From an uncultured Thermoplasmatales archaeon (GTDB lineage Archaea; Thermoplasmatota; E2; DHVEG-1), in assembly GCA_964638155.1 (NCBI GenBank), contig CAZWYI010000002.1, positions 5,727 to 69,726 of the forward strand: a DNA stretch of 64,000 bases, written 5' to 3'. The translations under genes were made by a program, and so were the position numbers. The notes under the pieces are model-generated. The model ran no database searches. It had not been told where the DNA came from and saw only the letters and a program-made list of their open reading frames with translations. Positions 2,622 to 58,400 of the stretch are shown here, in pieces. Positions within the stretch are counted from its first letter, which is position 1; each line of letters opens with the position of its first letter.

Positions 2622-3245
2622 TTAAGTAAAAACAGTGTTTTTTGTTAAATCATGAGAATAACTATCTTTAGGATTTGAGGTGTCAATAATTCCATCAGCA
2701 TAAGAAATAAAACTATTTACAATATTTTTTTTAGAAAGCTCCTTAGCAACATTTACCACAAAAAGCGTGTTTCCAAATTTTTTCTTGCTTATTTCATCTA
2801 AAATTTTTTTTGTAAAGTCGTCTAACCATATATCTTGATTACAAAGAGCCATTGTGTTTAATGAATCAATAAAAACAAATTTTTTATCTCCCTTTATTTT
2901 TTTAATTGATCTTAATATCTCCTCATACAGCTTTTCAAGATTTTTTTTATTGGAATAATCCAAAAATAAAATATTTTTTTTATCCAAATTATTTTTTCCT
3001 ATCCAATATATAAGGTTTTTTAAAGGTCTTTGAAAACTTACAAAAATTCCTCTATAATCTTTCTCTAATAAAATTTTTAGAGATATAGCATTATTCTTAG
3101 AATACAGCTCTGAAGAATGTTTAAGTAAAATAAGATTAGACTTATTGTTTTTTACATTAGTATACTCAACAATTGAACGTTTTATATTTTCTAAATTATC
3201 AAAATCATATTTAAGTTCAGACATCCCATCTGTCACCAAAAACAA
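2622..3245 (-). CDS. KaiC/RecA-fold domain protein lacking Walker A (second degenerate KaiC-like paralog).
   Basis: It shares the KKFVFIDSLNTM motif and overall architecture with the 193-aa neighbor and has no GKT/S P-loop. Confidence 0.45.
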   Translation of the reverse strand: MFLVTDGMSELKYDFDNLENIKRSIVEYTNVKNNKSNLILLKHSSELYSKNNAISLKILLEKDYRGIFVSFQRPLKNLIYWIGKNNLDKKNILFLDYSNKKNLEKLYEEILRSIKKIKGDKKFVFIDSLNTMALCNQDIWLDDFTKKILDEISKKKFGNTLFVVNVAKELSKKNIVNSFISYADGIIDTSNPKDSYSHDLTKNTVFT

Positions 3246-9294: not shown

Positions 9295-10011
9295 TTATGA
9301 TCCAGCGTCACTTTCCAAGTGTACCCATATAGTACCAGTCATTGTACCAATTTCATTTACACTTTCTGGAATATCAAGTGTTACTTGCACCCATACAAAA
9401 TCTGAAATCGCACTTGTCGCATTATTGTTGTCAATTGAATATCTAACATGTGCTGTTTCATCCCAGTTTGTATCTATGCTATAAAGATTTCTATTTGAGA
9501 CATTATAACACATATCACTTGAGTTATCATTCCCTGAAGCAAGAGTCCACGCAGTTGTATTTGAAGTATTTACCATAGTATCATTATTCCACATGAGAAC
9601 ACTTGATGGATCTGTTGAGGTACTATTTGCATTTGCATCTCTATCACCATGCAAATATATTTTCATATAAGTAAAGTTGTTAGATGAAACATTTATATGA
9701 GTAATATTTAGAGAATAATTTTCTTCATTTACAATTCCAAAGGCAGCTGTAAAGGTTCGGACCATATTTGTAGAATAAACATCTCCTAATTCTAGTTTTA
9801 ATCCTACATTTGTAGTGTTACTGCCTGCGACTCTAAGTACTCTTATGCCATCTGAAGAATTATCTGAGCCAATAAATCTAATTGATGCATCACAAGGATG
9901 TACTATACTATATTCATAACCTAGTTTTACAACAGCGTATTGGGTTGCTGTTATCATATTCAATACCAAAAAAAGAACAGCTATTATCATATATTTTCTA
10001 CTTACCTTCAT
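9295..10011 (-). CDS. Secreted hypothetical protein, N-glycosylation-sequon rich.
   Basis: Signal-peptide-like N-terminus MKVSRKYMIIAVLFLVLNMITA and more than 12 N-x-S/T sequons. No recognisable domain. Confidence 0.4.
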   Translation of the reverse strand: MKVSRKYMIIAVLFLVLNMITATQYAVVKLGYEYSIVHPCDASIRFIGSDNSSDGIRVLRVAGSNTTNVGLKLELGDVYSTNMVRTFTAAFGIVNEENYSLNITHINVSSNNFTYMKIYLHGDRDANANSTSTDPSSVLMWNNDTMVNTSNTTAWTLASGNDNSSDMCYNVSNRNLYSIDTNWDETAHVRYSIDNNNATSAISDFVWVQVTLDIPESVNEIGTMTGTIWVHLESDAGS

Positions 10012-10163: not shown

Positions 10164-11077
10164 TCAAGGTCTCGGCAGAAGACCAACGGTGTCAACTAAT
10201 TTTGGAATAATATCTTCCCAGAAAAGAGCGGTAATGTGGATTCCGTGAACCCCTCTAATCTTTTTTATTTCCTCAATTAGTTCTACAGCTATGTTAAAAC
10301 CTTCTTTTTTCTGATCCATTGTTTTTACCATACGATTATGATACTCATCTGGTATATCAACACCTGGAACAAAAAACTTCATCCTTTCAGTCATCTTTAG
10401 AGATTTTAGAGGAGTAATACCTGCTAAAATAGAAACTTTTTTGTCAAGGCCTCTGGAGCATACTTCATCCATAAATTCTTTGAATCTATCCAGATTATAA
10501 ACACTTTGAGTTTGAATAAAATCAGCTCCAGCCTCTATTTTTTTTCAAGTCTTTCAATTCTAAAATCAAAAGGCTCAGCAAAAGGGTTACAGGCTGCACC
10601 AATAAAAATAGGTGGAGCACCTGATAAAATTTTATCTCCACTTAGAAAAAATTCTTTATCTCTCATATTTTTAACTATATTTATAAGTTGAATAGAATCC
10701 AGATCATAAACACCTTTTGCATCAGGATGATTTCCAAAAGACTGATGATCACCTGATATAAAAAGAATATTTCTAATCCCACAGGATGCAGCACCAAGAA
10801 CATCACTTTGAAGGGCAATCCGATTTCTATCCCTACAACTCAACTGCATAATAGGTTCTAAACCCATTTTTTGAAGAATAACACTTCCCCCCATGCTAGA
10901 AAGTCTTACAACTGCAGTTTGATTATCGGTAATATTAAAAGCATCAGCATAGCCTCTTAAAATTACTGCCTTATCTTTTATTTTGTCTGGATTACAACCT
11001 TTTGGAGGGCCAATCTCTGCAGTTACAACAAATTTTTTTTCTGAAAGTAATTTCTCTAGATTACTTTTGTAATTCAT
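10164..11077 (-). pseudogene. metF: Methylenetetrahydrofolate reductase (MetF family, acetogen/archaeal type). It is split into two ORFs (10535-11077 and 10164-10472) by a -1 frameshift in an A8/T8 homopolymer at 10538-10545.
   Basis: The upstream ORF ends …NPFAEPFDFRIERLEKK*. Adding one A to the A8 run continues the frame as …IEAGADFIQTQSVYNLDRFKEFMDEVCSRGLDKKVSILAGITPLKS… through to the listed 102-aa ORF. This could be a homopolymer sequencing error or a true inactivation. Confidence 0.6.
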
Positions 11078-12991: not shown

Positions 12992-14551
12992 ATGTTAAAA
13001 GAATCTTCTAAATTTGATAAAGAAAATAAAAATTTCTCTTCTGATCGTGATAGATATAAAACCTTATTTGAGTCAATAAATGCTGCTGCATTTATTACTT
13101 CTCTTGATGGAAAAATAATTGAAGCTAATCTAAAATCTTGTGATTTACTAGGTTATGGCTGGGAAGAACTTAAAAAAATCTCGTTTAAAGATATTTTTCC
13201 AAAGAATGTAAAATGGGATATTTTAATGGAAGAAATCACCTCAAAAGGAGGTATCAACTTTGAAACAAAAAACAAAAGAAAAGACGGAACAATCTTTCCT
13301 GTAGCAATAGATACATCTCTTTTTGTTTTAGAAAAAAAACCAGTGATGCTTGCACTTATCTGGGATATTACGGAGAGAAAAACGGCAGAGGAAAAATTAA
13401 AGGAATCAGAAGAAAAATATCGAAGTATTTTTGAAAATAGTGCTGTAGCAATTATGCTTACTGATAAAAATGAAAAAATAATTTCTTGGAATAATTACGC
13501 CGAAAAAATGCTTGATATGAAAAAGGAAGATTTAGAGTTTAAACCTGTGAAATCCTTGTATCCGGAAGAGGAATGGGAAAAAATTCGGTCTCAAGATATA
13601 AGAAAGAAAGGTATGCAGCATCATCTTGAGACAAAGATGTATAAAAAAGATGGAAGACTTTTAGATGTTAATATATCAATTAGCGTATTTAAAGATAAAA
13701 AAGGAAAAATTACTGGTAGTGTAGGGATAATAAAAGATATATCTGAGCAAAAAAAAGCAGAAATAAAACTAAGAGAAAGCGAAGAAAAGTACCAAGGTCT
13801 TTTTGAATCTACAACTGATGGCATGCTAGTTTTAGATGGTCGAGGTGAAATAAAAGACATAAACAGTAAAGCAATTGAAATATTTGGAAAAAACAAAGAA
13901 AAAATGATTGGAAATAATTTTTTAAGTATGGGCCTATTGACACCGAAAGGTCTGTCTATTGTTGTAAAACAGTTCCATGATTTATTATCAAATAATAAAT
14001 CTACTAGTAGTGAAACAGAAATAATAGATAAGAATAATAAAAATCTAAATGTTGAACTTACTTCTTTTTTCTTATCTAAAAAACAAAGTGAATTAGATAA
14101 CTTTGTTTTAGTTATAAGAGATATAAATGATCGAAAAAAAACAGAGATAAAGCTAGCTAGAGAACACGAACTACTTCAAACACTTATGAACAATCTTCCA
14201 GATCCAGTATATTTTAAGGATTATGACAATAAATTTGTACTGGTAAATAAAGCAATGGCTGCAAATAATGATACAAAACCTGAAGAGATGATAGGTAAAA
14301 CAGATTTTGATTATTTATCACCTGAAAAGGCTCAAAAAGAATTCAAAGAAGACGAAGAAATAATGAAAACAGGTAAATTTGTAATTAATGAATCTAGAAA
14401 AATATTTTCTGAAAATGATGTTGAGTCATGGGTAAGTATAACTAAGATACCTCGTTTTGATCAAGAAGGAGATATAATTGGTATGATGAGTATAAAAAGA
14501 GATATTACATATTGGAAAAAACTTGAGAAATTAAAAAAAGATGAAATATAA
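12992..14551 (+). CDS. Multi-PAS-domain sensor protein without a recognisable output domain.
   Basis: At least three PAS repeats, each preceded by a coiled linker (TERKTAEEKLKESEEKYRSIFENS, EQKKAEIKLRESEEKYQGLFEST, DRKKTEIKLAREHELLQTLMNNL). No HisKA/HATPase_c or GGDEF domain is seen. Confidence 0.6.
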   Translation: MLKESSKFDKENKNFSSDRDRYKTLFESINAAAFITSLDGKIIEANLKSCDLLGYGWEELKKISFKDIFPKNVKWDILMEEITSKGGINFETKNKRKDGTIFPVAIDTSLFVLEKKPVMLALIWDITERKTAEEKLKESEEKYRSIFENSAVAIMLTDKNEKIISWNNYAEKMLDMKKEDLEFKPVKSLYPEEEWEKIRSQDIRKKGMQHHLETKMYKKDGRLLDVNISISVFKDKKGKITGSVGIIKDISEQKKAEIKLRESEEKYQGLFESTTDGMLVLDGRGEIKDINSKAIEIFGKNKEKMIGNNFLSMGLLTPKGLSIVVKQFHDLLSNNKSTSSETEIIDKNNKNLNVELTSFFLSKKQSELDNFVLVIRDINDRKKTEIKLAREHELLQTLMNNLPDPVYFKDYDNKFVLVNKAMAANNDTKPEEMIGKTDFDYLSPEKAQKEFKEDEEIMKTGKFVINESRKIFSENDVESWVSITKIPRFDQEGDIIGMMSIKRDITYWKKLEKLKKDEI

Positions 14552-14562
14552 TTTTTTTATAA

Positions 14563-15039
14563 TTACATGATTAACTGTGAAATAAATACCCCTGTGTAAT
14601 GAGCAAGTATGATTACAATTGTTCCAATGGCGATATGTTCTAAGACTACTTTTATTCTGTTATCTTCATTATTTTTAGCAATTCTATAGCTAAATATGCT
14701 TAATAGAGAAAATCCCCATATAATACAAACCCAAATAGCATATTTTAATTGTAACATTACAACGGGAATAACAAAAGAAAGGGCAATAATAAATTTACAT
14801 ATAAATGTTGAAAATGTTGATTCCCAAATTTCTTTATTAGTGTGTTTTCTTTCAGATTCTTCAGAAATATGAATTCCCATAGCATCTGATAAGGAATCAG
14901 CAATTGCGATAGTTAAAATTCCACCTAAAACTGCTATTTTTTCATTTGTCCCAGAGCTTAGACCTACCAATAAACCAAGAGTTGTAATAATACCTGATGT
15001 TAGACCAAAACTAAAACCTACTTCTAAAGATCGTTTCAT
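14563..15039 (-). CDS. VIT1/CCC1-family (DUF125) membrane protein, a putative Fe/Mn transporter.
   Basis: FSFGLTSGIITTLGLLVGLSSG… and AIADSLSDAMG motifs; 4-5 TM helices. Confidence 0.5.
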   Translation of the reverse strand: MKRSLEVGFSFGLTSGIITTLGLLVGLSSGTNEKIAVLGGILTIAIADSLSDAMGIHISEESERKHTNKEIWESTFSTFICKFIIALSFVIPVVMLQLKYAIWVCIIWGFSLLSIFSYRIAKNNEDNRIKVVLEHIAIGTIVIILAHYTGVFISQLIM

Positions 15040-15178
15040 ATTTATCTTCTAATATTACTCTAATAATAAAGAAACACTATTAAATATTTTTAAAAATAAA
15101 GTTTTGATATGTATATTTTTTTATTATTCAATTAATAATAACGTCATGTAAATGTTAGGAGAATGATTTTGACGCGCA

Positions 15179-15190
15179 TTTACTAGTAAA
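15179..15190. promoter_or_regulatory. Perfect 12-bp palindrome TTTACTAGTAAA (copy 1 of 3), ~120 bp upstream of the RHH antitoxin gene.
   Basis: Exact palindrome; copies 2 and 3 are at 15845-15856 and 18913-18924. Confidence 0.4.
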
Positions 15191-15311
15191 AAATAGATTT
15201 CCTATCTTTTAATCATTTTTCGTAAATTATTATTTATAGTTTAACAATTTTTAAAAGTACAGCCGATGATTTTAAATATATGTGTTACTATAGTAATACT
15301 ATGGTAATATA

Positions 15312-15551
15312 TTGACATCTGTTAATGTGAAGATATCGAAAGGCATGGAAGCAAAGATAAAAAATTTTCTTAAGAATCATCCTTATTATATGAACAAAAG
15401 TGAGATGATACGTGATGCTATTAGACATCTAATAGAATCAGAAAATAGACTGTCTACAGATACTCTAAAAGTAATAGATGAGGGGATAAAACAGGTAGAA
15501 AGTGGAAAAGGTAAAACATTAGAAGAATTGGAAAAGGAATTAAATGAATGA
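15312..15551 (+). CDS. Ribbon-helix-helix (CopG/ParD-like) antitoxin.
   Basis: N-terminal beta-strand VNVKISKGMEAKIKNFLK followed by two helices (SEMIRDAIRHLIE). It overlaps the downstream RelE-like ORF by 8 nt (ATGAATGA). Confidence 0.6.
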   Translation: MTSVNVKISKGMEAKIKNFLKNHPYYMNKSEMIRDAIRHLIESENRLSTDTLKVIDEGIKQVESGKGKTLEELEKELNE

Positions 15552-15801
15552 AATTTTATTCACAGATTCAGTTTCTAATCAATTTAAAAATTTAGAGAAA
15601 AACATTCAAGAAAGAATACTTTCACGACTTAAAAAAATGAGAAACTTACCTGATCACTATCTAAAATCTCTGAAATGATATCCATATTTTAGCCTAAGAA
15701 GTGGTGATTATAGAGCTATTCTAGATTGGAGAAAAAACAAGAACCAAATTTGGGTAGTTGCAGTAGGTCATAGAAGAAATATTTATGAAAAAGATTTTTA
15801 A
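15544..15801 (+). pseudogene. RelE/ParE-family toxin interrupted by an in-frame TGA at 15676-15678.
   Basis: MNEILFTDSVSNQFKNLEKNIQERILSRLKKMRNLPDHYLKSLK*YPYFSLRSGDYRAILDWRKNKNQIWVVAVGHRRNIYEKDF*. The C-terminal part carries the RelE hallmark (R)VGDYR(I)IY…HR. Both halves are in the same frame. Confidence 0.55.
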
Positions 15802-15836
15802 CAAATCTTATAATATTTGCTGAGATTTTTGAAAAT

Positions 15837-15856
15837 AAACATAATTTACTAGTAAA
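15837..15856. repeat. 20-nt repeat aaacataatttactagtaaa containing palindrome copy 2; a direct repeat of 18905-18924.
   Basis: An identical 20-mer occurs ~140 bp upstream of the subtilase start and again ~25 bp after its stop. Confidence 0.5.
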
Positions 15857-15993
15857 AAATAATTTTTTCCCTAAATATATTATTTTGAGAGTATATGAGA
15901 AAAAATTGAAAATATAATCTTTTATTCCTGACAATAATTGTTAAATAAATTATTTATACAAATAAATTAAAGTAATAAATAAGGAAAATAATA

Positions 15994-18879
15994 ATGAGGA
16001 ATATAATACAGAAAACAATAGTGATGATTCTAATCATTTTTTTAATACTTGTGAGTTTGAACATATCTAAAAGTAAAGAAAGTACAATATTGAGAAAAAA
16101 TACAATTACAGAAAAAAATTTTGATATTGACATCAATCAAAATAAAAAAATAGCCCCTATTGGTCAAGAATATATTTCTGGAGAGTTAATTGTAAAAATA
16201 AAATCTGATTTACCTATTGAAGATACTTCATCTTTTAATGGGCAGAGAAAATTAGGTATTTTTACATTAGATATATTGAATAGCAAAAATAATGTATTGT
16301 CTATTGAGAATGTTTTTAAGAATAAAGAAAATCAAATATCTATTTCAAAAGAATTTGATAATATCTATAAATTCACTTTTCAAAAAAATATGAATATTTT
16401 TTCAATCGCCAAAAAATATGAAAAAAATCCAAATATAATATATGCTGAACCTAACTATATTCATCACTTTTGTAATGTTCCAAATGATCCATATTTTAGT
16501 CAACAGTGGTCTTTAAATCAATTAAGTGACCATGATATTGATGGATCTGAAGCATGGGATATTGAAACAGGTAGATCTAATGTTACAATAGCAATTATTG
16601 ATATGGGTGTAGATTATAATCATCCAGATTTAAAGAATAATATATGGGTTAATGAAAATGAAATACCCAATAATGGTATAGATGATGACGAAAATGGATT
16701 TATTGATGATGTCAATGGTTGGGATTTTTATACAAATACAAATAATCCAATCGATTTAGGTGGTCATGGGACATTATGTGCAGGTATTGCATCTTCAGTT
16801 ACAAATAACAACATAGGTATAGCAGGTGTTAGTTGGAACTCTAAAATTATGCCTTTAAAAGTTCACTCTTTACCTATAAGTACTATCGAACAGGAAGCAA
16901 GAGCAATTATTTATGCAGCTGATAACGGTGCAGATATAATTAGCATGAGCTTTGGTGGATTTTATGATTCAAAGGTTTTGCGGGATGCTGTAAATTATGC
17001 TTATTCTAAAGGTGTTTTTCTAGTAGCTGCTGCAGGAAATAACAATCATAACAATAAATTTTATCCAGCAGCCTTTGACAATGTTTTTTCGGTTGCTGCT
17101 ACAGATGAAAATGATAAAAAAGCAGATTTTTCGAATTACGGTTCGTGGATAGATGTTGCAGCACCAGGAGTAAATATACTATCACTAAGAGCAAACAATA
17201 CTAGCTTGGGTAATATTATAGATGATAAATATACATTTGTCAATGGCACTAGTTTTGCAGGCCCACATGTTGCAGGTTTAGTAGCATTACTTTTATCAAA
17301 AAATAATAGCTTAAATCAAAATATGATTAAAACTATGCTCTGTAATACTGCTGATAAAATTAATACTGATAAGTACATTGGTACAGGTAGAATAAATGCT
17401 TACAAAGCATTATCAAGCGATCCAGTTGAAGCAGTTTTAAAATCATTTTCAGATGGTTCTGATGTGAAGGGAGTAATACCAATCATAGGTTCAGCTTCTG
17501 GAAAAAATTTTCAGGCATACAAGGTTGAATATGGCAGAGGAAAAAATCCTAATAATTACATAGAATTAAATTTTTCAACTAATAAAGTTCATAATGATGT
17601 TTTAGCGTATTTAAATACAACTATCCTTGATGATGGATATTTTACAATTAAATTAAATGTATCATGTAACTACACTAATTATGAAGATTCAACGTATATT
17701 GTTGTTAATAATAAATACAACCGATTTACAGTAGATAATGATGGATTAGAAGCAAATTATAGCTCTATTCAAGATGCATTAGATGATGCTGGAAATAATG
17801 ACGAAATTTTTGTTTATTCTGGGGAATATAACGAATCAATTAAAATATGCAGATCGGTAAATGTAATTGGAGAAAATAAATCTAGCACGATCATTAGGCT
17901 AAAAGGTTATCCTAAATATTATTTTTTACCTTTAGTAAATATTAAAGCAGATAATGTAACAATCAATGGATTTACTATTATGGATTCAGGTTATGGGATT
18001 GTAACTTATTCATTTGCAGATCATTGTAAAATTTTTAACAACATATTTGAAGAGAATTTTATAGATATAGCGATCCAATCATCTTGTTGTCAAATATCTA
18101 ATAATAAAATGACTAATGAAATCATATTATTTTATGCTTTTAACAATTCTATATGGAATAATTCTTTATATAATGGAATTAATATTTCGATGTCAAATAA
18201 TAATATTATTCACGATAATAAAATTTCTGAAGGGTCAAAAGGAATCGAAATATGTCTTTCAAATAATAATAAAATCTATAATAACTCTATTTTTGATAAT
18301 GTGTGTGGAATAAAAATATTTGAAAACTCTAATAACAATGTGATTTATCATAACGAGTTCATAAATAATTCAGAGAATGCAAATGATTGTTCTGTCAATT
18401 CTTGGGATAATGGATATCCTTCTGGTGGAAACTACTGGGATGATTATACTGGAATAGATGGTGATAATGATGGCATTGGTGATGCTCCATATAACATTCC
18501 AGGTGGGAATAACAAAGATTTATATCCATTGATCAGCTTGGAGATTGATTTAAATCCTCCATCAATTAGTATAATGAAACCAGAAAAGGCATTTTATCTA
18601 TTTAATATGAAAATCAGAAATTATATGATTCGTAAACCTTTGATTGTTGGAAAAATAAATATTACAGCAAATGCAATAGATAAAGAATCGAAAATAAATA
18701 GAGTTGAATTTTATATTGATAAGGATTTAAAATATACTGATTGCAGTTATCCTTACAATTATTTATGGAAAAGAGATAAAATAAGATTTTTCAAACATAA
18801 ACATGACGTTAAAGTTATAGCATATGATACTGCAGGAAACAATGAAAGCAAGGAAATTAAGGTTTGGAAATTTTTATAA
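15994..18879 (+). CDS. Secreted subtilisin-like serine protease (peptidase S8) with an N-terminal signal/anchor, an I9-like propeptide, and a C-terminal right-handed parallel beta-helix repeat region.
   Basis: Catalytic-triad motifs IAIIDMGVDYNHPDL (Asp), GHGTLCAGIA (His) and GTSFAGPHVAGLVALL (Ser). Downstream are repeated NN(I/K)I…N…I motifs typical of PbH1 beta-helix repeats. Confidence 0.8.
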   Translation: MRNIIQKTIVMILIIFLILVSLNISKSKESTILRKNTITEKNFDIDINQNKKIAPIGQEYISGELIVKIKSDLPIEDTSSFNGQRKLGIFTLDILNSKNNVLSIENVFKNKENQISISKEFDNIYKFTFQKNMNIFSIAKKYEKNPNIIYAEPNYIHHFCNVPNDPYFSQQWSLNQLSDHDIDGSEAWDIETGRSNVTIAIIDMGVDYNHPDLKNNIWVNENEIPNNGIDDDENGFIDDVNGWDFYTNTNNPIDLGGHGTLCAGIASSVTNNNIGIAGVSWNSKIMPLKVHSLPISTIEQEARAIIYAADNGADIISMSFGGFYDSKVLRDAVNYAYSKGVFLVAAAGNNNHNNKFYPAAFDNVFSVAATDENDKKADFSNYGSWIDVAAPGVNILSLRANNTSLGNIIDDKYTFVNGTSFAGPHVAGLVALLLSKNNSLNQNMIKTMLCNTADKINTDKYIGTGRINAYKALSSDPVEAVLKSFSDGSDVKGVIPIIGSASGKNFQAYKVEYGRGKNPNNYIELNFSTNKVHNDVLAYLNTTILDDGYFTIKLNVSCNYTNYEDSTYIVVNNKYNRFTVDNDGLEANYSSIQDALDDAGNNDEIFVYSGEYNESIKICRSVNVIGENKSSTIIRLKGYPKYYFLPLVNIKADNVTINGFTIMDSGYGIVTYSFADHCKIFNNIFEENFIDIAIQSSCCQISNNKMTNEIILFYAFNNSIWNNSLYNGINISMSNNNIIHDNKISEGSKGIEICLSNNNKIYNNSIFDNVCGIKIFENSNNNVIYHNEFINNSENANDCSVNSWDNGYPSGGNYWDDYTGIDGDNDGIGDAPYNIPGGNNKDLYPLISLEIDLNPPSISIMKPEKAFYLFNMKIRNYMIRKPLIVGKINITANAIDKESKINRVEFYIDKDLKYTDCSYPYNYLWKRDKIRFFKHKHDVKVIAYDTAGNNESKEIKVWKFL

Positions 18880-18904
18880 AATTTTTACTTGTACTTTGAT
18901 TTTC

Positions 18905-18924
18905 AAACATAATTTACTAGTAAA
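18905..18924. repeat. Second copy of the 20-nt repeat aaacataatttactagtaaa (palindrome copy 3), between the subtilase stop and the tRNA-Ser 3' end.
   Basis: Exact match to 15837-15856. Confidence 0.5.
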
Positions 18925-18986
18925 TTGAAGTGAGGAAAACATTTTACAAAAAACTCTTTTTTTCTCCTCTAAAATTGGTAAAATTA

Positions 18987-19071
18987 CGCGAGGAGGGAGA
19001 TTTGAACTCCCGAGGTCGTAAGACCAAAGGATTAGCAATCCTTCGCCGTGGCCAGGCTGGGCCATCCTCGC
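18987..19071 (-). tRNA. tRNA-Ser (anticodon GCT) with a long variable arm; no encoded CCA.
   Basis: The reverse complement reads GCGAGGA-TG-GCCC…anticodon stem AAGGA/TCCTT, loop TTGCTAA, long variable arm TGGTCTTACGACCTCG, T-arm GGGAG TTCAAAT CTCCC, acceptor TCCTCGC, discriminator G. Confidence 0.8.
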
Positions 19072-19179
19072 AAAATAGTTTTTTTTGAATTTATGGAATA
19101 AACAAATCTGATAAAAATGTTATGCAAAAGAAATCAAAACAAATATTAAAATATTACCCCTTGTTTATAATATTTACTT

Positions 19180-20598
19180 ATGCTAGACTGGACAGAGAGA
19201 TATAGACCAAACACTTTAGATAAAATCATCGGTAATGATAAAGCAGTTATCGAACTCCGTAAATGGGCAGCCGATTGGAATAAAGGAAAACCCAAACATA
19301 AAGCAGTTATTCTATCTGGAAAAGCAGGGATTGGAAAAACAAGTTGTGCGATAGCTCTTGCTAAAGACTTTGGGTGGACTATAATAGAATTAAACACATC
19401 AGATGCAAGAAATGCAAAAAAAATAAAATCAGTAGCAACAACAGGTGCGGTAAATGAAACATTTTCTGATGATGGCTCATTTATATCTTCAAATAAAGGC
19501 GGTCGAAAACTAATAATTCTAGATGAAGCAGATAATCTATATGAAAGAATTAAAAATAGTTCTAGTTCAGATAATGATCTAAGCGACAGAGGCGGAAAAA
19601 AAGCAATAGTAGATACAGTAAAAATCACAAATCAACCAATGATACTAATTGTAAACGATTACTATGGCCTTATAAAAGGCAGTGGAGAAAGTTTAAAAAA
19701 ATACTGTAAACTAATAAAGTTTTACAATCCATATTCTAACTTAATTTTCAATCTTTTAAAAAAAATATGTTTAAAAGAAGGAATAAATGTTGACCTAAAT
19801 GTCCTAAAAAACATTTCAGATAGATGCAAAGGGGATGTAAGATCAGCGATAAATGATTTACAATCAATATGTATGAATAAAAAACAAATTGATTCTACTG
19901 CTCTTTCAGTATTGGGATATAGAGACCGGGAGAAAGATATTTTTTCTTCACTTAGGGAAATTTTTAAAACCAAAAATGTAAAAGAAATAAGAGAGAACTT
20001 AATGAATTTGGATTTAGATCCAAAACTATTGATGCTTTGGATAAATGAAAATCTTCCAAAGGAATACATTGATAAAAAAGATTTAGCAAATGGATATGAT
20101 ATGCTATCAAAAGCAGATATGTTTTTTGGTAGAACCTTTAAAAATCAAAACTATAAACTCTGGTCTTATGCCTGCGACTTGATGAATGGTGGAGTTGCGA
20201 CAGCAAAATCACATAACTATCCAAACAATCGATACAATTTTCCAACATATCTTCGCAGAAGAAAAGGCAATAAAAACAAATCTGACTTAAGAAAAACAAT
20301 AGTAAAAAAAATAAGTAAAAACTGTCATAACTCGGGTTATAAAACAAAAGATCAGTTTTTTAACTATTTTATTCATATGTTTAGAAATAATACGTATTTT
20401 GCAATAAATATGAAAGATAAGTTTGATTTCACTGAACCAGAAATTAAGTATCTTTTAGGAAAAAGTCATATGTATAAATTAAAAGAAATACAGAATTTTT
20501 CAAAAGATGAAAAAATAAAACCAATAGAAGAAAATATAGAACAAAAAAAAGATAAAAAAGAAAATAAAGAAATTCAGCAGAATTTATTTGATTTCTGA
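19180..20598 (+). CDS. rfcL: Replication factor C large subunit.
   Basis: MLDWTERYRPNTLDKIIGND, Walker A LSGKAGIGKTS, the RFC-box layout, and a C-terminal PIP-like motif QQNLFDF. Confidence 0.8.
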   Translation: MLDWTERYRPNTLDKIIGNDKAVIELRKWAADWNKGKPKHKAVILSGKAGIGKTSCAIALAKDFGWTIIELNTSDARNAKKIKSVATTGAVNETFSDDGSFISSNKGGRKLIILDEADNLYERIKNSSSSDNDLSDRGGKKAIVDTVKITNQPMILIVNDYYGLIKGSGESLKKYCKLIKFYNPYSNLIFNLLKKICLKEGINVDLNVLKNISDRCKGDVRSAINDLQSICMNKKQIDSTALSVLGYRDREKDIFSSLREIFKTKNVKEIRENLMNLDLDPKLLMLWINENLPKEYIDKKDLANGYDMLSKADMFFGRTFKNQNYKLWSYACDLMNGGVATAKSHNYPNNRYNFPTYLRRRKGNKNKSDLRKTIVKKISKNCHNSGYKTKDQFFNYFIHMFRNNTYFAINMKDKFDFTEPEIKYLLGKSHMYKLKEIQNFSKDEKIKPIEENIEQKKDKKENKEIQQNLFDF

Positions 20599-23823: not shown

Positions 23824-23890
23824 GCTGGTAGTTTGAAGGACGCCCATCCCGAGGCGCCCTTCTGTTAAGGGGTGCATCCCATCCCCTCCT
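23824..23890. repeat. Composite conserved intergenic motif copy A (GCTGGTAGTTT … hairpin … TGCATCCCATCCCCTCCT), between cdrS and ftsZ.
   Basis: The 11-mer gctggtagttt (23824-23834) and 18-mer tgcatcccatcccctcct (23873-23890) are both repeated at 40346-40384. Between them lies the hairpin GAAGG-a-CGCC/GGCG-c-CCTTC at 23835-23862. Confidence 0.45.
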
Positions 23891-23910
23891 AATTATTTTA
23901 ATGTAGGTAG

Positions 23911-24150
23911 TTATTTTTTCATGTAAGGCTCAATGGACTCGACGGCAAGTTCCATTTCTTGGACTTTTTTTATTTTTTCCGCCTTTTCAATTAAATCATT
24001 GGCATAGTTTTTAATAAAATCGTTTACCGCATGTCGAATAACCTCCGACCTAGTTGCAAACTCTCCAGCTCTCACAAAAAGATCTATTGAGTGAACATTT
24101 CGCTGGGGTAATCTTATGGTTATCCTTTGCGTTTCCATTTTTCTCCTCAC
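23911..24150 (-). CDS. cdrS: Small ribbon-helix-helix DNA-binding protein immediately upstream of ftsZ; a likely CdrS-type cell-division regulator.
   Basis: RITIRLPQRNVHSIDLFVRAGEFATRSEVIRHAVNDFI is the RHH beta-alpha-alpha pattern. Its position directly 5' of and co-oriented with ftsZ fits the conserved euryarchaeal cdrS-ftsZ2 arrangement. Confidence 0.5.
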   Translation of the reverse strand: MRRKMETQRITIRLPQRNVHSIDLFVRAGEFATRSEVIRHAVNDFIKNYANDLIEKAEKIKKVQEMELAVESIEPYMKK

Positions 24151-28585: not shown

Positions 28586-28708
28586 GTCGGGGTGGCTCAG
28601 CCTGGTTAGAGCGCCTGACTCATAAGCGCAGCTTAAAGGGTTCGAAAATAGTTGCCTTTATGGCGTTAAGATATCAGGAGGTCGCGGGTTCAGATCCCGC
28701 CCCCGACA
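28586..28708 (+). tRNA. tRNA-Met (elongator; anticodon CAT) with a ~48-nt canonical-position intron (between nt 37/38, intron ~28625-28672).
   Basis: Acceptor GTCGGGG/CCCCGAC, D-arm GCTC…GAGC, anticodon stem CCTGA/TCAGG split by an insert, loop CTCATA|A, T-arm GCGGG TTCAGAT CCCGC, discriminator A. G1-C72 argues against an initiator. Confidence 0.75.
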
Positions 28709-29158
28709 TACAAACTACTGACTCACCCCCTAAAAAAATTAAATTTACTAAACAGGTTCATATCCGGGATATTTTTAATATATTAACATAAAAACAAACA
28801 AGAAATTTCCAAACTTTAGTTTGCGAGATGAATCGTATGGTAAGATAATTTAAAAAACTGTTAAGTGTTTGTTCCCATAAATGGGAAAACTATCTCATTT
28901 TTGTCATTTAAGGGCTGACAATTTCTAGTATTTCCATAAAATTGCTTAAAAGGCTTTATAAAAAAAATATTGCTAAGGAGTTTATTTTAAAAATAATATG
29001 TGTTGAAAGTAGAAATTTACACAAAGCGAAGATTTTTTAAGTAAAATATATAAATAACAAGTAACATAACTAAGAACTGGTACGAGTAAGACCTGCTGAA
29101 AGAATGACGACTCCATAGCGAGTTTAGGACGAGTAAGCAGGAATCGTGCATTATTTTT

Positions 29159-40334: not shown

Positions 40335-40405
40335 GAAGGAATCGGGCTGGTAGTTTTTTGTTAGAGTGCATCCCATCCCCTCCTAGTGAGGCCAGCCTAC
40401 CTTCC
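40335..40405. repeat. Composite conserved intergenic motif copy B, embedded in a GGAAGG…GGCTGG/CCAGCC…CCTTCC hairpin, between the Sm gene and hutU.
   Basis: gctggtagttt (40346-40356) and tgcatcccatcccctcct (40367-40384) are identical to copy A. Flanking inverted repeats are ggaagg (40335-40340)/ccttcc (40400-40405) and ggctgg (40345-40350)/ccagcc (40392-40397). Confidence 0.45.
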
Positions 40406-55184: not shown

Positions 55185-55464
55185 AAAATATTTTTTGGTT
55201 AAAAGGATGCAGGTAAAACTTTCAAAATAAGAGTTAAAAAAGCTTTTAGAATTTTAGTAAAAAATTCTAAGATAATTGTTTTACCTCTTATTAACACTAG
55301 TTTTGTAGAAATAAAACCATACCTGCATATTTATCTACATATTCTTTTGCACATGTAATTTAATATACATATTTAAATATTAATCATATATTTTTTTATA
55401 TACAGAAAGATATATATTTGTATAGTTTATTTGAGTTGAATAATATTCAGAAAAATTCCACAGC

Positions 55465-58400
55465 ATGAATAAAAAAACATGCTTTTCTCTGAATAATGAT
55501 ACTAGAAGGGATAGGTGGGTAGAATTGCAAAGTAATCTTAATAGAAACAAATATATTTATAGAAAAATTTTATGCTGTTATGTCGTAGGAATATTGATAT
55601 TTGCATCGTTTGTTGTGATGGTTCCAAATAGTAAAGCTGATAATCCTTCAGATTTTATAATAACTTTTTATGAAGATGGTGGAAGTTTCACCGAATCTTC
55701 TAAGTTTGATGTTGGTGATGTTGTTTTTGTAAACATTACGTTAGATGGTCTCTCAGGCGATCCAGTGGGATCTGAACCATATTGTTTGTTTGTCAAAAAT
55801 AATGATACCACTGAAAGTATATATTTCCCTGTTTGGGATAATGATACATCTGGCCCATGGGATGAAGAAAATCAGGATGATGATGGATCTTACTGGGGCT
55901 ATTTTAATTTAACAGATTCAGAAGACTCACATCCACCTTCAGGTCCCGGAGATGCAGCTGTATTAAATTGTTCCGCTGGTGATACTATTTATCTATATGA
56001 AGATAATGGAGTTGGACCAACAAATCCCCTCTGGGATGATGATTTAGATGTTGCTTCTACTGAAATTATAATAGATAGTGATAGTGGAAATGAACAGAAT
56101 TCTGAACCTGATATAAGCTCACCAAATCCCTCCAATAATTCTATCGATGTCTCTATAGATCTTTCTACTCTTAATGTTACAATTGAAGATCCTGAAGGCG
56201 ATTATTTTAATTGGAGTATTGAAACAAGTCCATATATTGGTGGCAGCTCATCATCAGATGATAATAATGGAACCTGCACCTGTGGTGTTGGTGGACTAAA
56301 TTATAATACAACATATTATTGGTTTGTAAATTGTACTGATTCCGGTAGTGGAAATTGGGAAAATGAAACTTTTTCTTTTACAACAATTGCAGATGATCCT
56401 GGTAGTAGTGGCAATAACTCTCCGATTGTTACAGATCCAGATCCAACTAATGAGTCAACTATTTCTGCAGATTCGTTATCTTCACTGAATATTTCAATTA
56501 GTGATCCTGAAGGGGATAGCATTGATTGGAGCATAGAAACAAGCCCATATATTGGTGATAATAGTGCAACTAACGATGTTAATGGTACAAAAACGAGTGA
56601 GATAACTGAGCAATTAACCCCTGGCTCGACGTATTATTGGTTTGTAAATTGTACTGATTCTGGCAGTGGTAATTGGACAAAGAGGAGTTACTGGTTTACA
56701 ATCTCTTCATCTCCGCCAGGTGGAGATATGTATAATGTTTCAGGTTATGTTTTAGATAGTGTGGATGAAGGACCAATACAGGGTGCTGATTTAACGATAA
56801 CTGACAACGCATCTTTTTCAAATAATGCTGTAACAGATAGTCAGGGGTATTATATGTTCCAAAATGTACCTGCTGGTGATTACGATGTAGTTGCATCAAT
56901 GTCTGGCGATCCAGGTTTCGGTCCAATCTGGCAGTCCATTACGGTGTTTGATCATGATGAAACTAACTTTAATTTTACAGTTTCCTTTGACGGTGGTGGA
57001 GATGATGGTAGTGATGATCCGGGGCCTGGTGAAGATGGTATAGAGGGTGAAGTAAATATTAGCGTGGTCGGAACCGTTTATATGGAAAGATCAATGGTTA
57101 CAATTTCTGGTGTCAATCTTACTGCATATCCAAAAAATGATGATAGTAACATTTTGAATAACACGTTTACAGATCAAAACGGACAATTTCAACTAAATTT
57201 TGTAATAAATCAGTCAATTAGTGAAAATTCCAGTGAAATCTGCTTCATGTTTTCTGCTGAAGGTTATGAAACAAACGATGATTGGCAAATGGGTCTTTAT
57301 GATCTCATGGATATGATGGAGCAAGAAGGACAAGTCATGATGGATATGGTAGAACTTGCAAAGATTTGGAATACAACTGCATTTGTAAACGGTACAATTC
57401 TTGATTTAGATACAAATAATCCTATTTCAAATGTTACAGTTGAATTAGAAGGCCCTAACTATTTTGAAAATAGAACTCAAACTGATAATAATGGAAATTT
57501 TTCAGTTGGCTCAATCACAGGGGATGAAAGTGATTTTGAATTAATGTTTGATAAAGAAGGATACTTTACAAATGCATCTGAAATTAACGATGATGGTACT
57601 ATTTCTGCAGGAGATTATATCGAGTTAGGAACTATTTATATGGAGGTAAAACCATCATCTAATGCGTTTATTGAGGGTTATCTAAAATCTGAGGGTAATC
57701 CTATAGAAGATGCAAATCTTATGTTATATGATCCAGCTCATCCATATGAATCTGAAAAAGGTTTTTTTGATATGCCGACTACAGACTCAAATGGCTATTA
57801 TAATATTTCTACCTACGCTGGAGAATTCTATCTAATAACACTTGCTAACATAGTTGGCGAGTCTAGACACGGACCTCCGCTTGGTATTGGTGGATATGTA
57901 AACCAAGTAATTGATGTGGATGTTTCAGCTAATGAAACAGTAGAACAAAATATTAATCTTACAGCTTCAAATCCTGATAATATAAACGTTAATCTAAATA
58001 TCATCAATAGTACTTTTTCATACGCAAGGATTTCAAGAACTATATCATGTAACCCAAGAATAGTTAGATTAATGACAGATGCAAACTTAGATGGGGTAAT
58101 AGATTCTGATGAGGGAGATACATTTAAAAGTTCCATCAACTCATCTTTTACTTCAAGTGGTTATTTTGATGAAGATATGCTTCTAGCAAGAATTCCATTT
58201 ACTTACTATAAACTAGATGGGACATACATTCAACCGCAACAAATCAATGTTGATATAACTGGAATAATCGGAGATGCTGATTCAAGTGATCTGATAACAG
58301 TTTATGTTAATATGTCTATGGTTCCAAGTGGCCAAGTTGACTCAAATGAGTCATTACATAGTATTAGACTTGAAGGATACTATGGTAATCCAGCATTTAA

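Follow-up and report, generated by a model that had tools for sequence, protein, structure and literature searches.

Cis-mobilizable elements (CIMEs) derive from ICEs and are tRNA-targeting remnants that carry no integrase. Comparable are the tycheposon islands of Prochlorococcus, which comprise tRNA-targeting elements and integrase-less remnants of these (bioRxiv 10.1101/2020.12.28.424599). In addition, integrons are known from archaea (Ghaly et al., 2022, PMC9668308), and plasmids of Acinetobacter harbor Xer-dependent dif modules (PMC6449649).

The locus in the focus of this analysis lies in a 64-kb stretch of AT-rich DNA (about 30% GC), referred to as the window, and its host, an uncultured Thermoplasmatota archaeon, sets it apart from the tycheposons. 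It contains three copies of a perfect 12-bp palindrome, which are most likely junction sequences of DNA insertions into a tRNA-Ser hotspot and not sites of a regulator. With tRNA-targeting elements and their remnants the locus shares a tRNA 3' end as the point of insertion, a partial copy of that tRNA at the distal boundary, a content that varies among close relatives, and successive additions at one site; like the remnants, it holds only cargo and no recombinase. Unlike in tRNA-targeting elements, an integrase is missing from every locus seen, in the window and in relatives, and the island of the window would at best be a relic, or else depend on mobilisation in trans. Furthermore, the unit is tiny (about 750 bp, with the toxin-antitoxin (TA) pair alone), and the 12-bp palindrome with its conserved flanks forms a second repeat system inside the tRNA repeats.

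As in integron cassettes and CALINs, single-cargo units follow one another head to tail, promoter-proximal to terminator-proximal; each is bounded by a sequence resembling a recombination site, a TA cassette is included and, as in CALINs, no integrase is adjacent. The sites themselves are different: attC is an imperfect inverted repeat of 55-140 nt with a GTTRRRY core, whereas here a perfect palindrome of 12 bp is flanked by about 20-30 nt of conserved sequence. GTTRRRY is absent from the cassette boundaries as read from the sequence, no fold is predicted for single-stranded DNA at the three sites (z-scores -0.50, +0.52 and -0.76), and no tyrosine recombinase, such as an IntI beside its attI, was found in the window or the relatives' loci. 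The link to a tRNA with its partial duplication, and the presence of only two units, also depart from integrons. The dif modules are likewise small and recombinase-less, often consist of TA pairs, use short palindromic sites and are proposed to rely on a host recombinase in trans. By inspection, however, an 11-6-11 architecture of the XerC/XerD type is not readily apparent here: the arms of copy 2, AAACATAATTT and AATTATTTTTT around ACTAGT, match at 7/11 positions. The present units are, moreover, chromosomal and tRNA-linked. Two other element types were considered and rejected. For a MITE or IS, the orthologous sites are the only other copies met with across the window and about 120 kb of relatives' loci, and no transposase was found; for a casposon, the genes between the repeats are only those of the RHH protein, ParE and the S8 protease, with no Cas1 casposase or family-B polymerase.

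Palindromes and shared flanks

The palindrome TTTACTAGTAAA occurs at 15179-15190 (copy 1, O_A), 15845-15856 (copy 2) and 18913-18924 (copy 3, O_B) and nowhere else in the window, as the sequence-only reading had reported for all three positions. Its count is 0 in all 100 dinucleotide-preserving shuffles, and the mononucleotide expectation is 0.04. Variants with up to two mismatches are at background level (11 matches, the three perfect ones included, vs 12.3 expected), so that the motif appears to be local and not genome-wide. Its core is not depleted in the window either, with 27 occurrences of ACTAGT vs 22 expected and 144 of CTAG vs 181 expected.

Copies 1 and 2, spaced 666 bp apart, share the 18-mer ATTTACTAGTAAAAAATA, and copy 3 extends in the sequence to a perfect 16-bp palindrome, AATTTACTAGTAAATT. 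Copies 2 and 3 are embedded in the 20-mer AAACATAATTTACTAGTAAA, which forms exact direct repeats at 15837-15856 and 18905-18924 with a spacing of 3068 bp and which does bracket the S8 protease gene, as had been claimed. The same claim placed the 20-mer directly against tRNA-Ser at its 3' end; in fact, 61 nt separate the tRNA from copy 3, which is near to it only. The flanks are shared in a chain, since copies 1 and 2 have in common the palindrome plus AAAATA at its right, and copies 2 and 3 the palindrome with AAACATAA at its left. Such chained flanks are expected of recombination junctions, and flank sharing beyond the palindrome is unexpected for independent operators.

An origin by chance, as a low-complexity repeat or as an assembly artefact, with neither history nor function, is hardly credible. 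The genome is AT-rich, and 20 of 100 order-2 Markov simulations of the window contained some repeated complex 18-mer, but three exact 12-mers within 3.7 kb stand against 0 expected, and an independent Logan assembly (run SRR7048227, L135) is base-for-base the same over 14319-16087, including copies 1 and 2. Four other genomes, moreover, have orthologous sites whose flanks are conserved, which effectively refutes this explanation.

It is also very improbable that the copies are terminators or insulators closing each transcription unit. Copies 2 and 3 sit 43 and 33 nt past stop codons, with T4-T5 runs ahead of them; against this, no stable hairpin can form (there is no loop, and fold z-scores range from -0.8 to +0.5), no gene precedes copy 1, and the hybrid flanks and the tRNA pseudo-copy described below would be left unexplained. 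In archaea, oligo-T is sufficient for termination, which speaks against a need for such elements.

The tRNA-Ser(GCT) slot in related Thermoplasmatota

The slot that extends from a PAS gene to tRNA-Ser(GCT), which it meets at the 3' end, was compared among related Thermoplasmatota in nine loci from eight organisms (L001, L002, L010, L132, L133, L136, L137, L138 and L139). The tRNA gene, identified with ARAGORN and Rfam at 18986-19072 on the minus strand, is the proposed integration target; its position is the same in all relatives checked, and the variable slot starts directly downstream of its 3' end, as found in the window, L132, L136, L138 and L139. The slot is empty in L010, L133 and L002. 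In L001 it holds a gene for a secreted protein of 462 aa and in L132 two radical-SAM genes, a difference in content seen although the RFC proteins of these two are 96% identical. RHH-ParE is the only content at four loci from three organisms (L136/L137/L024, L138 and L139; L024 is the same organism as L136), where the order is PAS, RHH, ParE, one palindrome site, tRNA-Ser and RFC. A VIT-family gene of the window (14563-15039, minus strand; Pfam VIT1, 1.6e-10) is lineage-specific slot content to the left of the element relic and is missing from the slot in all nine related loci.

At the left boundary of the inserted DNA, the window carries GTTAGGAGAATGATTTTGAC (15154-15173), which alignment with relatives suggests to be a decayed pseudo-copy of the tRNA-Ser 3' end, an attL-like boundary repeat. 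The corresponding copies of the relatives are better preserved: the one in L136 (9831-9850) agrees with the tRNA-Ser 3' end of the same genome at 19/20 positions, and the one in L138 at 27/32 positions, of which 15 nt are downstream flank in the stretch compared. Of roughly 1,900 random windows tried for each locus, none scores as high. The copy of the window matches at 13/20 by our own count, which is not significant alone, and it aligns column-for-column with those of L136 and L138. Such a partial repeat of the tRNA at the left boundary is the hallmark of site-specific integration, and the boundary repeat of L138, which includes that lineage's own tRNA-downstream flank, argues for integration in situ. 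The whole region, bounded in relatives by this partial copy, is read as inserted DNA.

O_A lies 5 nt inside the left boundary repeat and has orthologues at L136 9856 (cTTACTAGTAAA) and L132 7778 (aTTACTAGTAAA), with a degenerate copy in L138. Its right flank, AAATAGATTTCCTATCTTTTAATCA (15191-15215, plus strand), is conserved, with 42/55 to 47/53 identity to relatives. O_B, within the right 20-nt repeat, has orthologues at L136 10523 (perfect), L132 7861 (TcTACTAGTAAA) and L138 10536 (TTTACTAaTAAA). The 61-nt arm between O_B and the tRNA (18925-18985) is conserved, being 81-87.5% identical to L136, L132 and L138. In L136, O_A and O_B flank the TA pair at a distance of 667 bp, as against 666 bp for copies 1 and 2 of the window. 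In L138 and L139 the O_A orthologue is destroyed (TTAAAAGTAAAT), with RHH-ParE and the proximal operator intact, and L132 retains both palindrome sites although its TA pair is deleted, which marks it as a deletion derivative and not a true empty site. Among the relatives examined, none has a single unoccupied palindrome. A second locus with palindrome and flanks was found neither in the viral scan nor among the metagenome matches listed, in which L024 was the only true match.

Where the window has copies 2 and 3, the relatives have a single palindrome site and no protease. The intervening segment (15857-18904, plus strand) is lineage-specific, and its sole gene (15994-18879) encodes a protease with S8 subtilase, NosD beta-helix and Big_7 domains (Pfam Peptidase_S8, 2.5e-59; NosD, 1.1e-17). 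The segment is absent here in L136, L137, L138 and L139, and a check proposed earlier, for absence of the protease in relatives, turned out as anticipated, since none lies between PAS and tRNA-Ser in L136/L137/L024, L138 and L139. Once the 3,068 bp that separate the 20-mers are taken out in silico, the locus has the same architecture as in the relatives. The left repeat with copy 2 (15837-15856) is a hybrid junction: its left flank corresponds to the ParE-distal flank of the relatives' B site (32/38 in L136, 30/34 in L132), and its right flank is new sequence which in alignments resembles the O_A right flank. The right flank of copy 3, in turn, corresponds to the relatives' B-site flank (49/58). 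The earlier suggestion of a protease cassette that was inserted beside a tRNA and is marked by direct repeats of a recombination site is thus supported by relatives with a single site and no protease. A near-identical protease cassette was not found elsewhere; outside the source genome, the closest protein reaches no more than 56% identity, and the palindrome is missing from its surroundings.

As a separate observation, the pseudo-tRNA copy of the window is more decayed than the divergence of about 10% between TA genes would predict, which counts against the history proposed in the following section. So does the lack, in the scans and relatives covered, of a second palindrome locus, of a near-identical protease cassette and of a genome with one unoccupied palindrome, as well as the fact that this pseudo-tRNA copy does not reach significance alone.

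Proposed history of the insertions

The explanation that we favor as a whole, and consider probable, comprises three steps. In the first, a small RHH-ParE element would have integrated at the tRNA-Ser 3' end and duplicated it (the decayed copy at 15154-15173); this is seen in relatives and transferred to the window by orthology. The element would have carried one palindrome just inside its left end (O_A) and another about 60 nt inside its right end (O_B). In the second step, which the comparison with relatives shows, the 3,068-bp protease segment was added at O_B, in the lineage of the window only. The crossover would have fallen within the 20-nt block AAACATAATTTACTAGTAAA, which is why this block is duplicated, leaving copy 2 with the old left flank and a new right flank, and copy 3 with a left flank that arrived with the segment and a right flank that was there before. 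It is very likely that a recombination history of these two steps accounts for how many copies there are, where they lie and what flanks them.

In the third step, a dimeric site-specific recombinase, supplied in trans, would bind the palindrome and exchange strands, and the TA pair and the protease gene would be integrase-less cassettes with conserved ends, starting with the palindrome (O) plus AAAATA.ATTT..CC.TA and ending with TTGA...AAACATAA plus O. That the 12-mer itself is the site of a recombinase is a tentative proposal, on balance doubtful. A 12-bp site with a symmetric center would give a tyrosine recombinase no polarity, which counts against it, and ordinary short-homology recombination could produce the same end state with no dedicated enzyme. 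Pfam revealed no domain of an integrase, a transposase or any other recombinase, either among the 38 ORFs scanned in the window or among the gene calls of syntenic relatives.

A different course of events, which we regard as rather unlikely, assigns the palindrome to another role. Here, a TA element and a protease element, both targeting tRNA-Ser, integrated successively, with an att copy between them; recombination or slippage between the two palindromes on either side later removed this att copy and fused the palindromes into copy 2; the palindrome would then be a subterminal arm-type binding site or one in a terminal inverted repeat, and not the crossover point. A palindrome near both ends of the TA relic is by construction a 12-bp terminal inverted repeat, the terminal match in L136 extends by inspection to 15/18, and the copy 2 right and copy 3 left flanks resemble the O_A right and O_B left flanks of the TA element. 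In tRNA islands, successive integrations are indeed known to push older elements outward, as in tycheposons (bioRxiv 10.1101/2020.12.28.424599). Nevertheless, two elements would each have to be decayed to exactly one cargo unit with the ends intact, the middle att copy would have vanished with no trace, a candidate third tRNA-like repeat beside O_B lacks statistical support, and integrase remnants are not found in the window ORFs or the relatives' gene calls.

On a more far-reaching view, a recombinase encoded elsewhere would insert units such as a TA pair or a secreted protease at a landing pad tied to the tRNA-Ser 3' end, or swap them within it. This would be a functional analogue of integrons or dif modules with an unrelated site architecture. 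That uncultured Thermoplasmatota possess such a new cassette-exchange system, with small integrase-less units whose ends are built around a 12-bp palindromic core, is a speculative idea with the odds against it.

The toxin-antitoxin pair and its probable operator

The predicted antitoxin is an RHH protein (CopG/Arc/MetJ-type) of 79 aa, encoded at 15312-15551 on the plus strand and recognized by weak Pfam hits (RHH_1, RHH_8) that fall below the Pfam threshold; outside the source it has 8 homologue clusters with 91-94% identity. Its start codon is TTG in the window, ATG in L136 and GTG in L138, at the same position. The ParE/RelE-type toxin gene (15544-15801, plus strand; Pfam ParE_toxin, 5.2e-8) is inactivated by an in-frame TGA at 15676-15678, where the intact orthologues of 85 aa in L136 and L138 have Gly (GGA). 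A TATA-box-like sequence, TTTAAATATA (15271-15280, plus strand), is read 41 nt upstream of the start codon, counted from its first base, and is conserved in L136 and L138; it is the putative RHH-ParE promoter. Between it and the start codon lies a tandem palindrome of two 11-bp units, TTACTATAGTAA and then TACTATGGTAA (15285-15307), about 92% conserved across all TA-bearing relatives and present in L138 as a perfect 19-bp palindrome, ACCATAGTAATACTATGGT. This sequence is probably the autoregulatory operator of the RHH protein, and is a likelier candidate than the 12-mer. In type II RHH-ParE operons, too, the antitoxin gene overlaps that of a ParE-family toxin, and a conserved tandem palindrome occupies the autorepressor position between TATA box and start codon; the nonsense codon of the toxin, and a probable operator at 15285-15307 distinct from the 12-mer, set the present locus apart.

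These data bear on the proposal that the 12-mers are an operator family, bound by the RHH antitoxin or another dimeric regulator and co-regulating the TA pair, the divergent VIT gene and the protease. The 12-mer is a perfect palindrome of the size of one RHH dimer's footprint, all three copies are perfect in a genome with an intact RHH gene, copies 1 and 2 lie upstream of genes, and TACTA/TAGTA half-sites are common to the 12-mer and the palindrome at 15285-15307. Moreover, TTACT-N(0-6)-AGTAA occurs seven times in 64 kb, four of these within the 3.7-kb region. However, the protease and tRNA-Ser genes converge on copy 3 with their 3' ends and leave it no gene to control. From the ends of copies 1 and 2 it is 121 and 137 nt to the start codons downstream (TTG at 15312 for RHH) and roughly 80-90 nt to TATA-like boxes, and the half-site spacing is 2 bp off that of the proximal operator. 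The loss of O_A in L138 and L139 with the TA pair intact, and the retention of both sites in L132 without it, also speak against co-regulation. Of the two interpretations offered by the sequence-only reading, that of recombination and an inserted cassette is supported, and that of an operator family is set aside as improbable, with a small residual chance, owing to the shared half-site, that the RHH protein also touches the 12-mer.

Apart from its regulation, the TA pair is informative with regard to age. The RHH and ParE genes are about 90% identical at the nucleotide level, as against 77-79% for core genes, and at four-fold degenerate sites 78-84% identical, as against 43-56% for PGI, RFC and PAS. 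This excess over core-gene identity suggests that the cassette moved horizontally and is far younger than the host lineages, despite which it is always found at the same tRNA.

Repeats and gene content next to tRNA-Ser(GCT)

The interval between the gene for a PAS-domain protein (12992-14551, +) and the 3' end of tRNA-Ser(GCT) (18986-19072, -), here called the slot, holds four genes: a VIT-family protein (14563-15039, -), an RHH antitoxin with a TTG start (15312-15551, +), a ParE-family toxin with an in-frame TGA at 15676-15678 (15544-15801, +), and a 961-aa S8 subtilase with NosD/beta-helix and Big_7 domains (15994-18879, +). The RFC large subunit gene (19180-20598, +) lies on the other side of the tRNA. 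Subtilases of this large, secreted kind are thought to underlie protein degradation by sediment Thermoplasmatota.

The 12-bp palindrome TTTACTAGTAAA is found at 15179, 15845 and 18913 (copies 1, 2 and 3) and at no other place in the 64 kb of the window (GC ~30%). It was present in 0/100 dinucleotide-preserving shuffles (mononucleotide expectation 0.04), and with up to 2 mismatches allowed the matches are at background level (11, including the 3 perfect copies, vs 12.3 expected). An exact 20-mer, AAACATAATTTACTAGTAAA, is found at 15837 and 18905 with a spacing of 3,068 bp, and copies 1 and 2 have the 18-mer ATTTACTAGTAAAAAATA in common; the flanks are thus chained, with the right flank common to copies 1 and 2 and the left flank to copies 2 and 3. 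These counts bear out the sequence-only reading in its description of three perfect palindromes and a pair of 20-mers, but the last copy does not abut the tRNA-Ser 3' end as claimed there: 61 nt separate them. The stretch 14319-16087 shows no difference from the Logan assembly of run SRR7048227, and an Rfam scan of 15040-19180 for known RNA families returned the tRNA alone. Avoidance of restriction sites (the SpeI site ACTAGT; CTAG) was rejected, both sites occurring at expected frequencies, and so was an attC-like or hairpin structure at the palindrome sites, which fold no better than shuffles.

Related loci, fetched by their RFC protein (identities are pairwise to the window), differ widely in the slot, which is about 40 bp long in L010 (RFC 80%), empty in L133 (76%) and 28 bp long in L002 (65%), and which contains the gene of a 462-aa secreted protein in L001 (79%) and two radical-SAM genes in L132 (79%). 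L001 and L132 share 96% identity in their RFC proteins, yet their slot genes are completely different, L132 carrying palindrome sites besides its radical-SAM genes; slot turnover therefore outpaces species divergence and, judged from this pair of loci, takes place at near-species level. The slot shows a route by which flexible genes enter an abundant, uncultured archaeal group, namely through a single tRNA-linked hotspot. Two short-read Logan contigs from the same or a 99% identical strain (L008 and L009) both end within tRNA-Ser, probably because this tRNA is common to several co-occurring relatives; population heterogeneity at the hotspot could also account for the breaks.

Mobility of the toxin-antitoxin unit

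A search with the RHH protein returned eight homologue clusters outside the source (91-94% identity), three of which share contigs with RFC homologues: L136/L137 (with L024 from the same organism), L138 and L139. There, the order is PAS, RHH (79 aa), intact ParE (85 aa), tRNA-Ser and RFC, and the slot carries neither the VIT gene nor the protease. In L136 the toxin-antitoxin pair is bracketed by cTTACTAGTAAA at 9856 and TTTACTAGTAAA at 10523, sites which keep the flanking sequences of window copies 1 and 3 and are spaced 667 bp apart, vs 666 bp between window copies 1 and 2.

Across the window, L136 and L138, the RHH and ParE genes are 78-84% identical at four-fold degenerate sites, as against 43-56% for PGI, RFC and PAS, a value essentially at saturation for this base composition; overall nucleotide identity is ~90% for the pair vs 77-79% for the core genes. 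Since the pair is far more alike than core genes at saturation, long-separated lineages have received this small unit, or exchanged it, at the same tRNA. On this comparison of sequences, the toxin-antitoxin unit is mobile: its ~750 bp are met again in lineages that have reached silent-site saturation in their core genes. Searches of viral contigs with the RHH and ParE proteins found no relatives.

A tRNA 3' end duplicated at the distal side of an insert is a classic mark of site-specific integration into a tRNA gene. At 8 nt to the left of the copy-1 orthologue of L136 lies ATCACGCGAGGAGGGAGATT, which matches the L136 tRNA-Ser 3' end at 19/20 positions. The boundary copy of L138 is 32 nt long (27/32 match) and includes 15 nt of the flank downstream of L138's own tRNA, which argues for integration in situ. 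Random windows scoring as high as these repeats numbered 0 of ~1,900 per locus. Window positions 15154-15173 (GTTAGGAGAATGATTTTGAC) align with the partial tRNA copies of L136 and L138; this pseudo-tRNA matches the tRNA 3' end at 13/20 positions by manual count and is recognised solely via the relatives. When the tRNA region was compared with the window by BLAST in search of a partial duplicate of the tRNA, nothing significant was returned, because the copy has decayed to this extent. A third tRNA-like repeat to the right of copy 3 (GTGAGGAAAACATTTTAC) was dropped, its likeness to the tRNA 3' end not being significant. The same logic of tRNA duplication has been described for tycheposon islands (bioRxiv 10.1101/2020.12.28.424599). 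The window's VIT gene and the radical-SAM genes of L132 are both found left of the pseudo-tRNA, where there is thus a second insertion point.

In L132, both palindrome sites are retained, with one mismatch each and 83 bp apart, together with ~30 nt from the right flank of copy 1 and ~45 nt corresponding to the relatives' sequence after ParE. As both flanks of the toxin-antitoxin pair are kept, L132 was rejected as an unoccupied 'empty site' and is instead a derivative that lost the pair by internal deletion. In the window genome, the module appears to be decaying. The toxin's TGA codon corresponds to GGA (Gly) in the L136 and L138 orthologues, and the RHH gene itself terminates with TGA; the codon is therefore a nonsense mutation, and recoding of TGA was rejected on both counts. 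The RHH start codon, TTG in the window, is ATG in L136 and GTG in L138.

Palindromic junctions and the inserted protease

The left flank of copy 2 runs on from the ParE stop as it does in the relatives (32/38 and 30/34 identity), and to the right of copy 3 comes the conserved 61-nt arm leading to the tRNA (49/58, or 81-87.5% by global alignments). In place of the relatives' single site, the window carries two sites and 3,048 bp whose sole gene is the protease; removal of 15857-18924 gives the relatives' arrangement. Read from these alignments, the protease is a later, lineage-specific insertion at the ancestor of copy 3, which upholds and extends the earlier proposal of a cassette inserted next to a tRNA. 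At its start the inserted segment has AAATAATTTTTTCCCTA, similar to the right flank of copy 1, and at its end TTGATTTTCAAACATAA, similar to the left flank of copy 3; it therefore derives from a sibling unit whose ends were of this type. Two histories would each produce this outcome: recombination between a circular unit and the resident site within the 20-nt identity block, or integration of a second sibling element at the tRNA, the intervening att copy then being lost between two palindromes. A homologue search found no near-identical protease unit elsewhere; the nearest homologue, P0122 on contig L011, is 56% identical, and no palindrome was found near its gene. Contig L011 itself opens (1-200) with a ~95-bp perfect hairpin, most likely a contig-end assembly artefact.

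The other proposal of the sequence-only reading, that the palindromes form an operator family for the RHH antitoxin, is unlikely in view of where the copies lie and how they fare in relatives. Copy 3 is located between convergent 3' ends, and copies 1 and 2 stop 121 and 137 nt short of the respective downstream start codons. In L138 and L139 the toxin-antitoxin pair is intact although the orthologue of copy 1 is destroyed (TTAAAAGTAAAT) and that of copy 3 has a mismatch, while in L132 the sites persist after loss of the pair. Furthermore, another element has the position and conservation expected of an RHH autorepressor site: this candidate, TTTAAATATA followed by TTACTATAGTAA-TACTATGGTAA at 15271-15307, immediately precedes the start codon, is ~92% conserved and forms a perfect 19-bp palindrome in L138. 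TACTA/TAGTA half-sites are common to this element and the 12-mer, with different spacing, and RHH may therefore weakly cross-recognise the latter. A palindrome near an RHH gene is thus not automatically an RHH operator.

Its palindromic form, its presence at each junction and the blocks of identity around it make the 12-mer itself a candidate recombinase target. Scans of 38 window ORFs and of the relatives' loci for an integrase or other recombinase found none. Viral contigs gave five single matches to a 17-mer, all unrelated, and no match to a pattern of copy 3 plus the arm; metagenomes gave at least 120 single matches to the 17-mer, and among the matches listed all were unrelated except L024. 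No other locus carrying the palindrome site was found in the viral scans or among the metagenome matches listed. The description that fits the locus best is that of a toxin-antitoxin element at tRNA-Ser, either a relic or cis-mobilisable, which gained a protease unit through recombination at a shared palindromic junction. In logic it resembles tRNA-island accretion, integron CALINs (PMC9668308) and dif modules (PMC6449649), but it is without the defining sequence features of CALINs and apparently without those of dif modules; no attC-type single-strand fold was predicted at the palindrome sites. Should the palindrome be a genuine recombination core, it would provide a compact, searchable signature by which cassettes, together with their recombinase, could be traced in archaeal metagenomes; otherwise the locus remains a clean example of tRNA-adjacent short repeats recording insertion history.

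Other repeats and structured elements in the window

Two further exact repeats were noted. The GC-rich 20-mer GTGCATCCCATCCCCTCCTA occurs at 23872-23891 and 40366-40385, in GC-rich intergenic stretches with local inverted repeats upstream of ftsZ and urocanase; these stretches may be unannotated structured RNAs, and 23850-23952 (-) gives a weak, sub-threshold tRNA-clan match. The 23-mer GAATCAATAAAAACAAATTTTTT occurs at 2142-2164 and 2863-2885, with a spacing of 721 bp, within the first and second of three neighbouring ORFs (1961-2542, KaiC-like; 2622-3245, no Pfam match), and probably reflects local gene duplication. From ~55444 to 64000 (+), a single ORF of at least 2,852 aa, probably encoding a giant surface protein, runs past the window end; CarboxypepD_reg, SdrD_B-like and transthyretin-like repeats occur in it, as do internal DNA repeats at 56314 and 56632. 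Rfam places a 123-nt intron-containing tRNA at 28586-28708, which ARAGORN missed. Finally, a DUF3800-X RNA motif (29080-29149, +) lies just past the 3' terminus of an oppositely oriented DUF3800 gene (29159-29812), a placement which seemed unusual for this motif.
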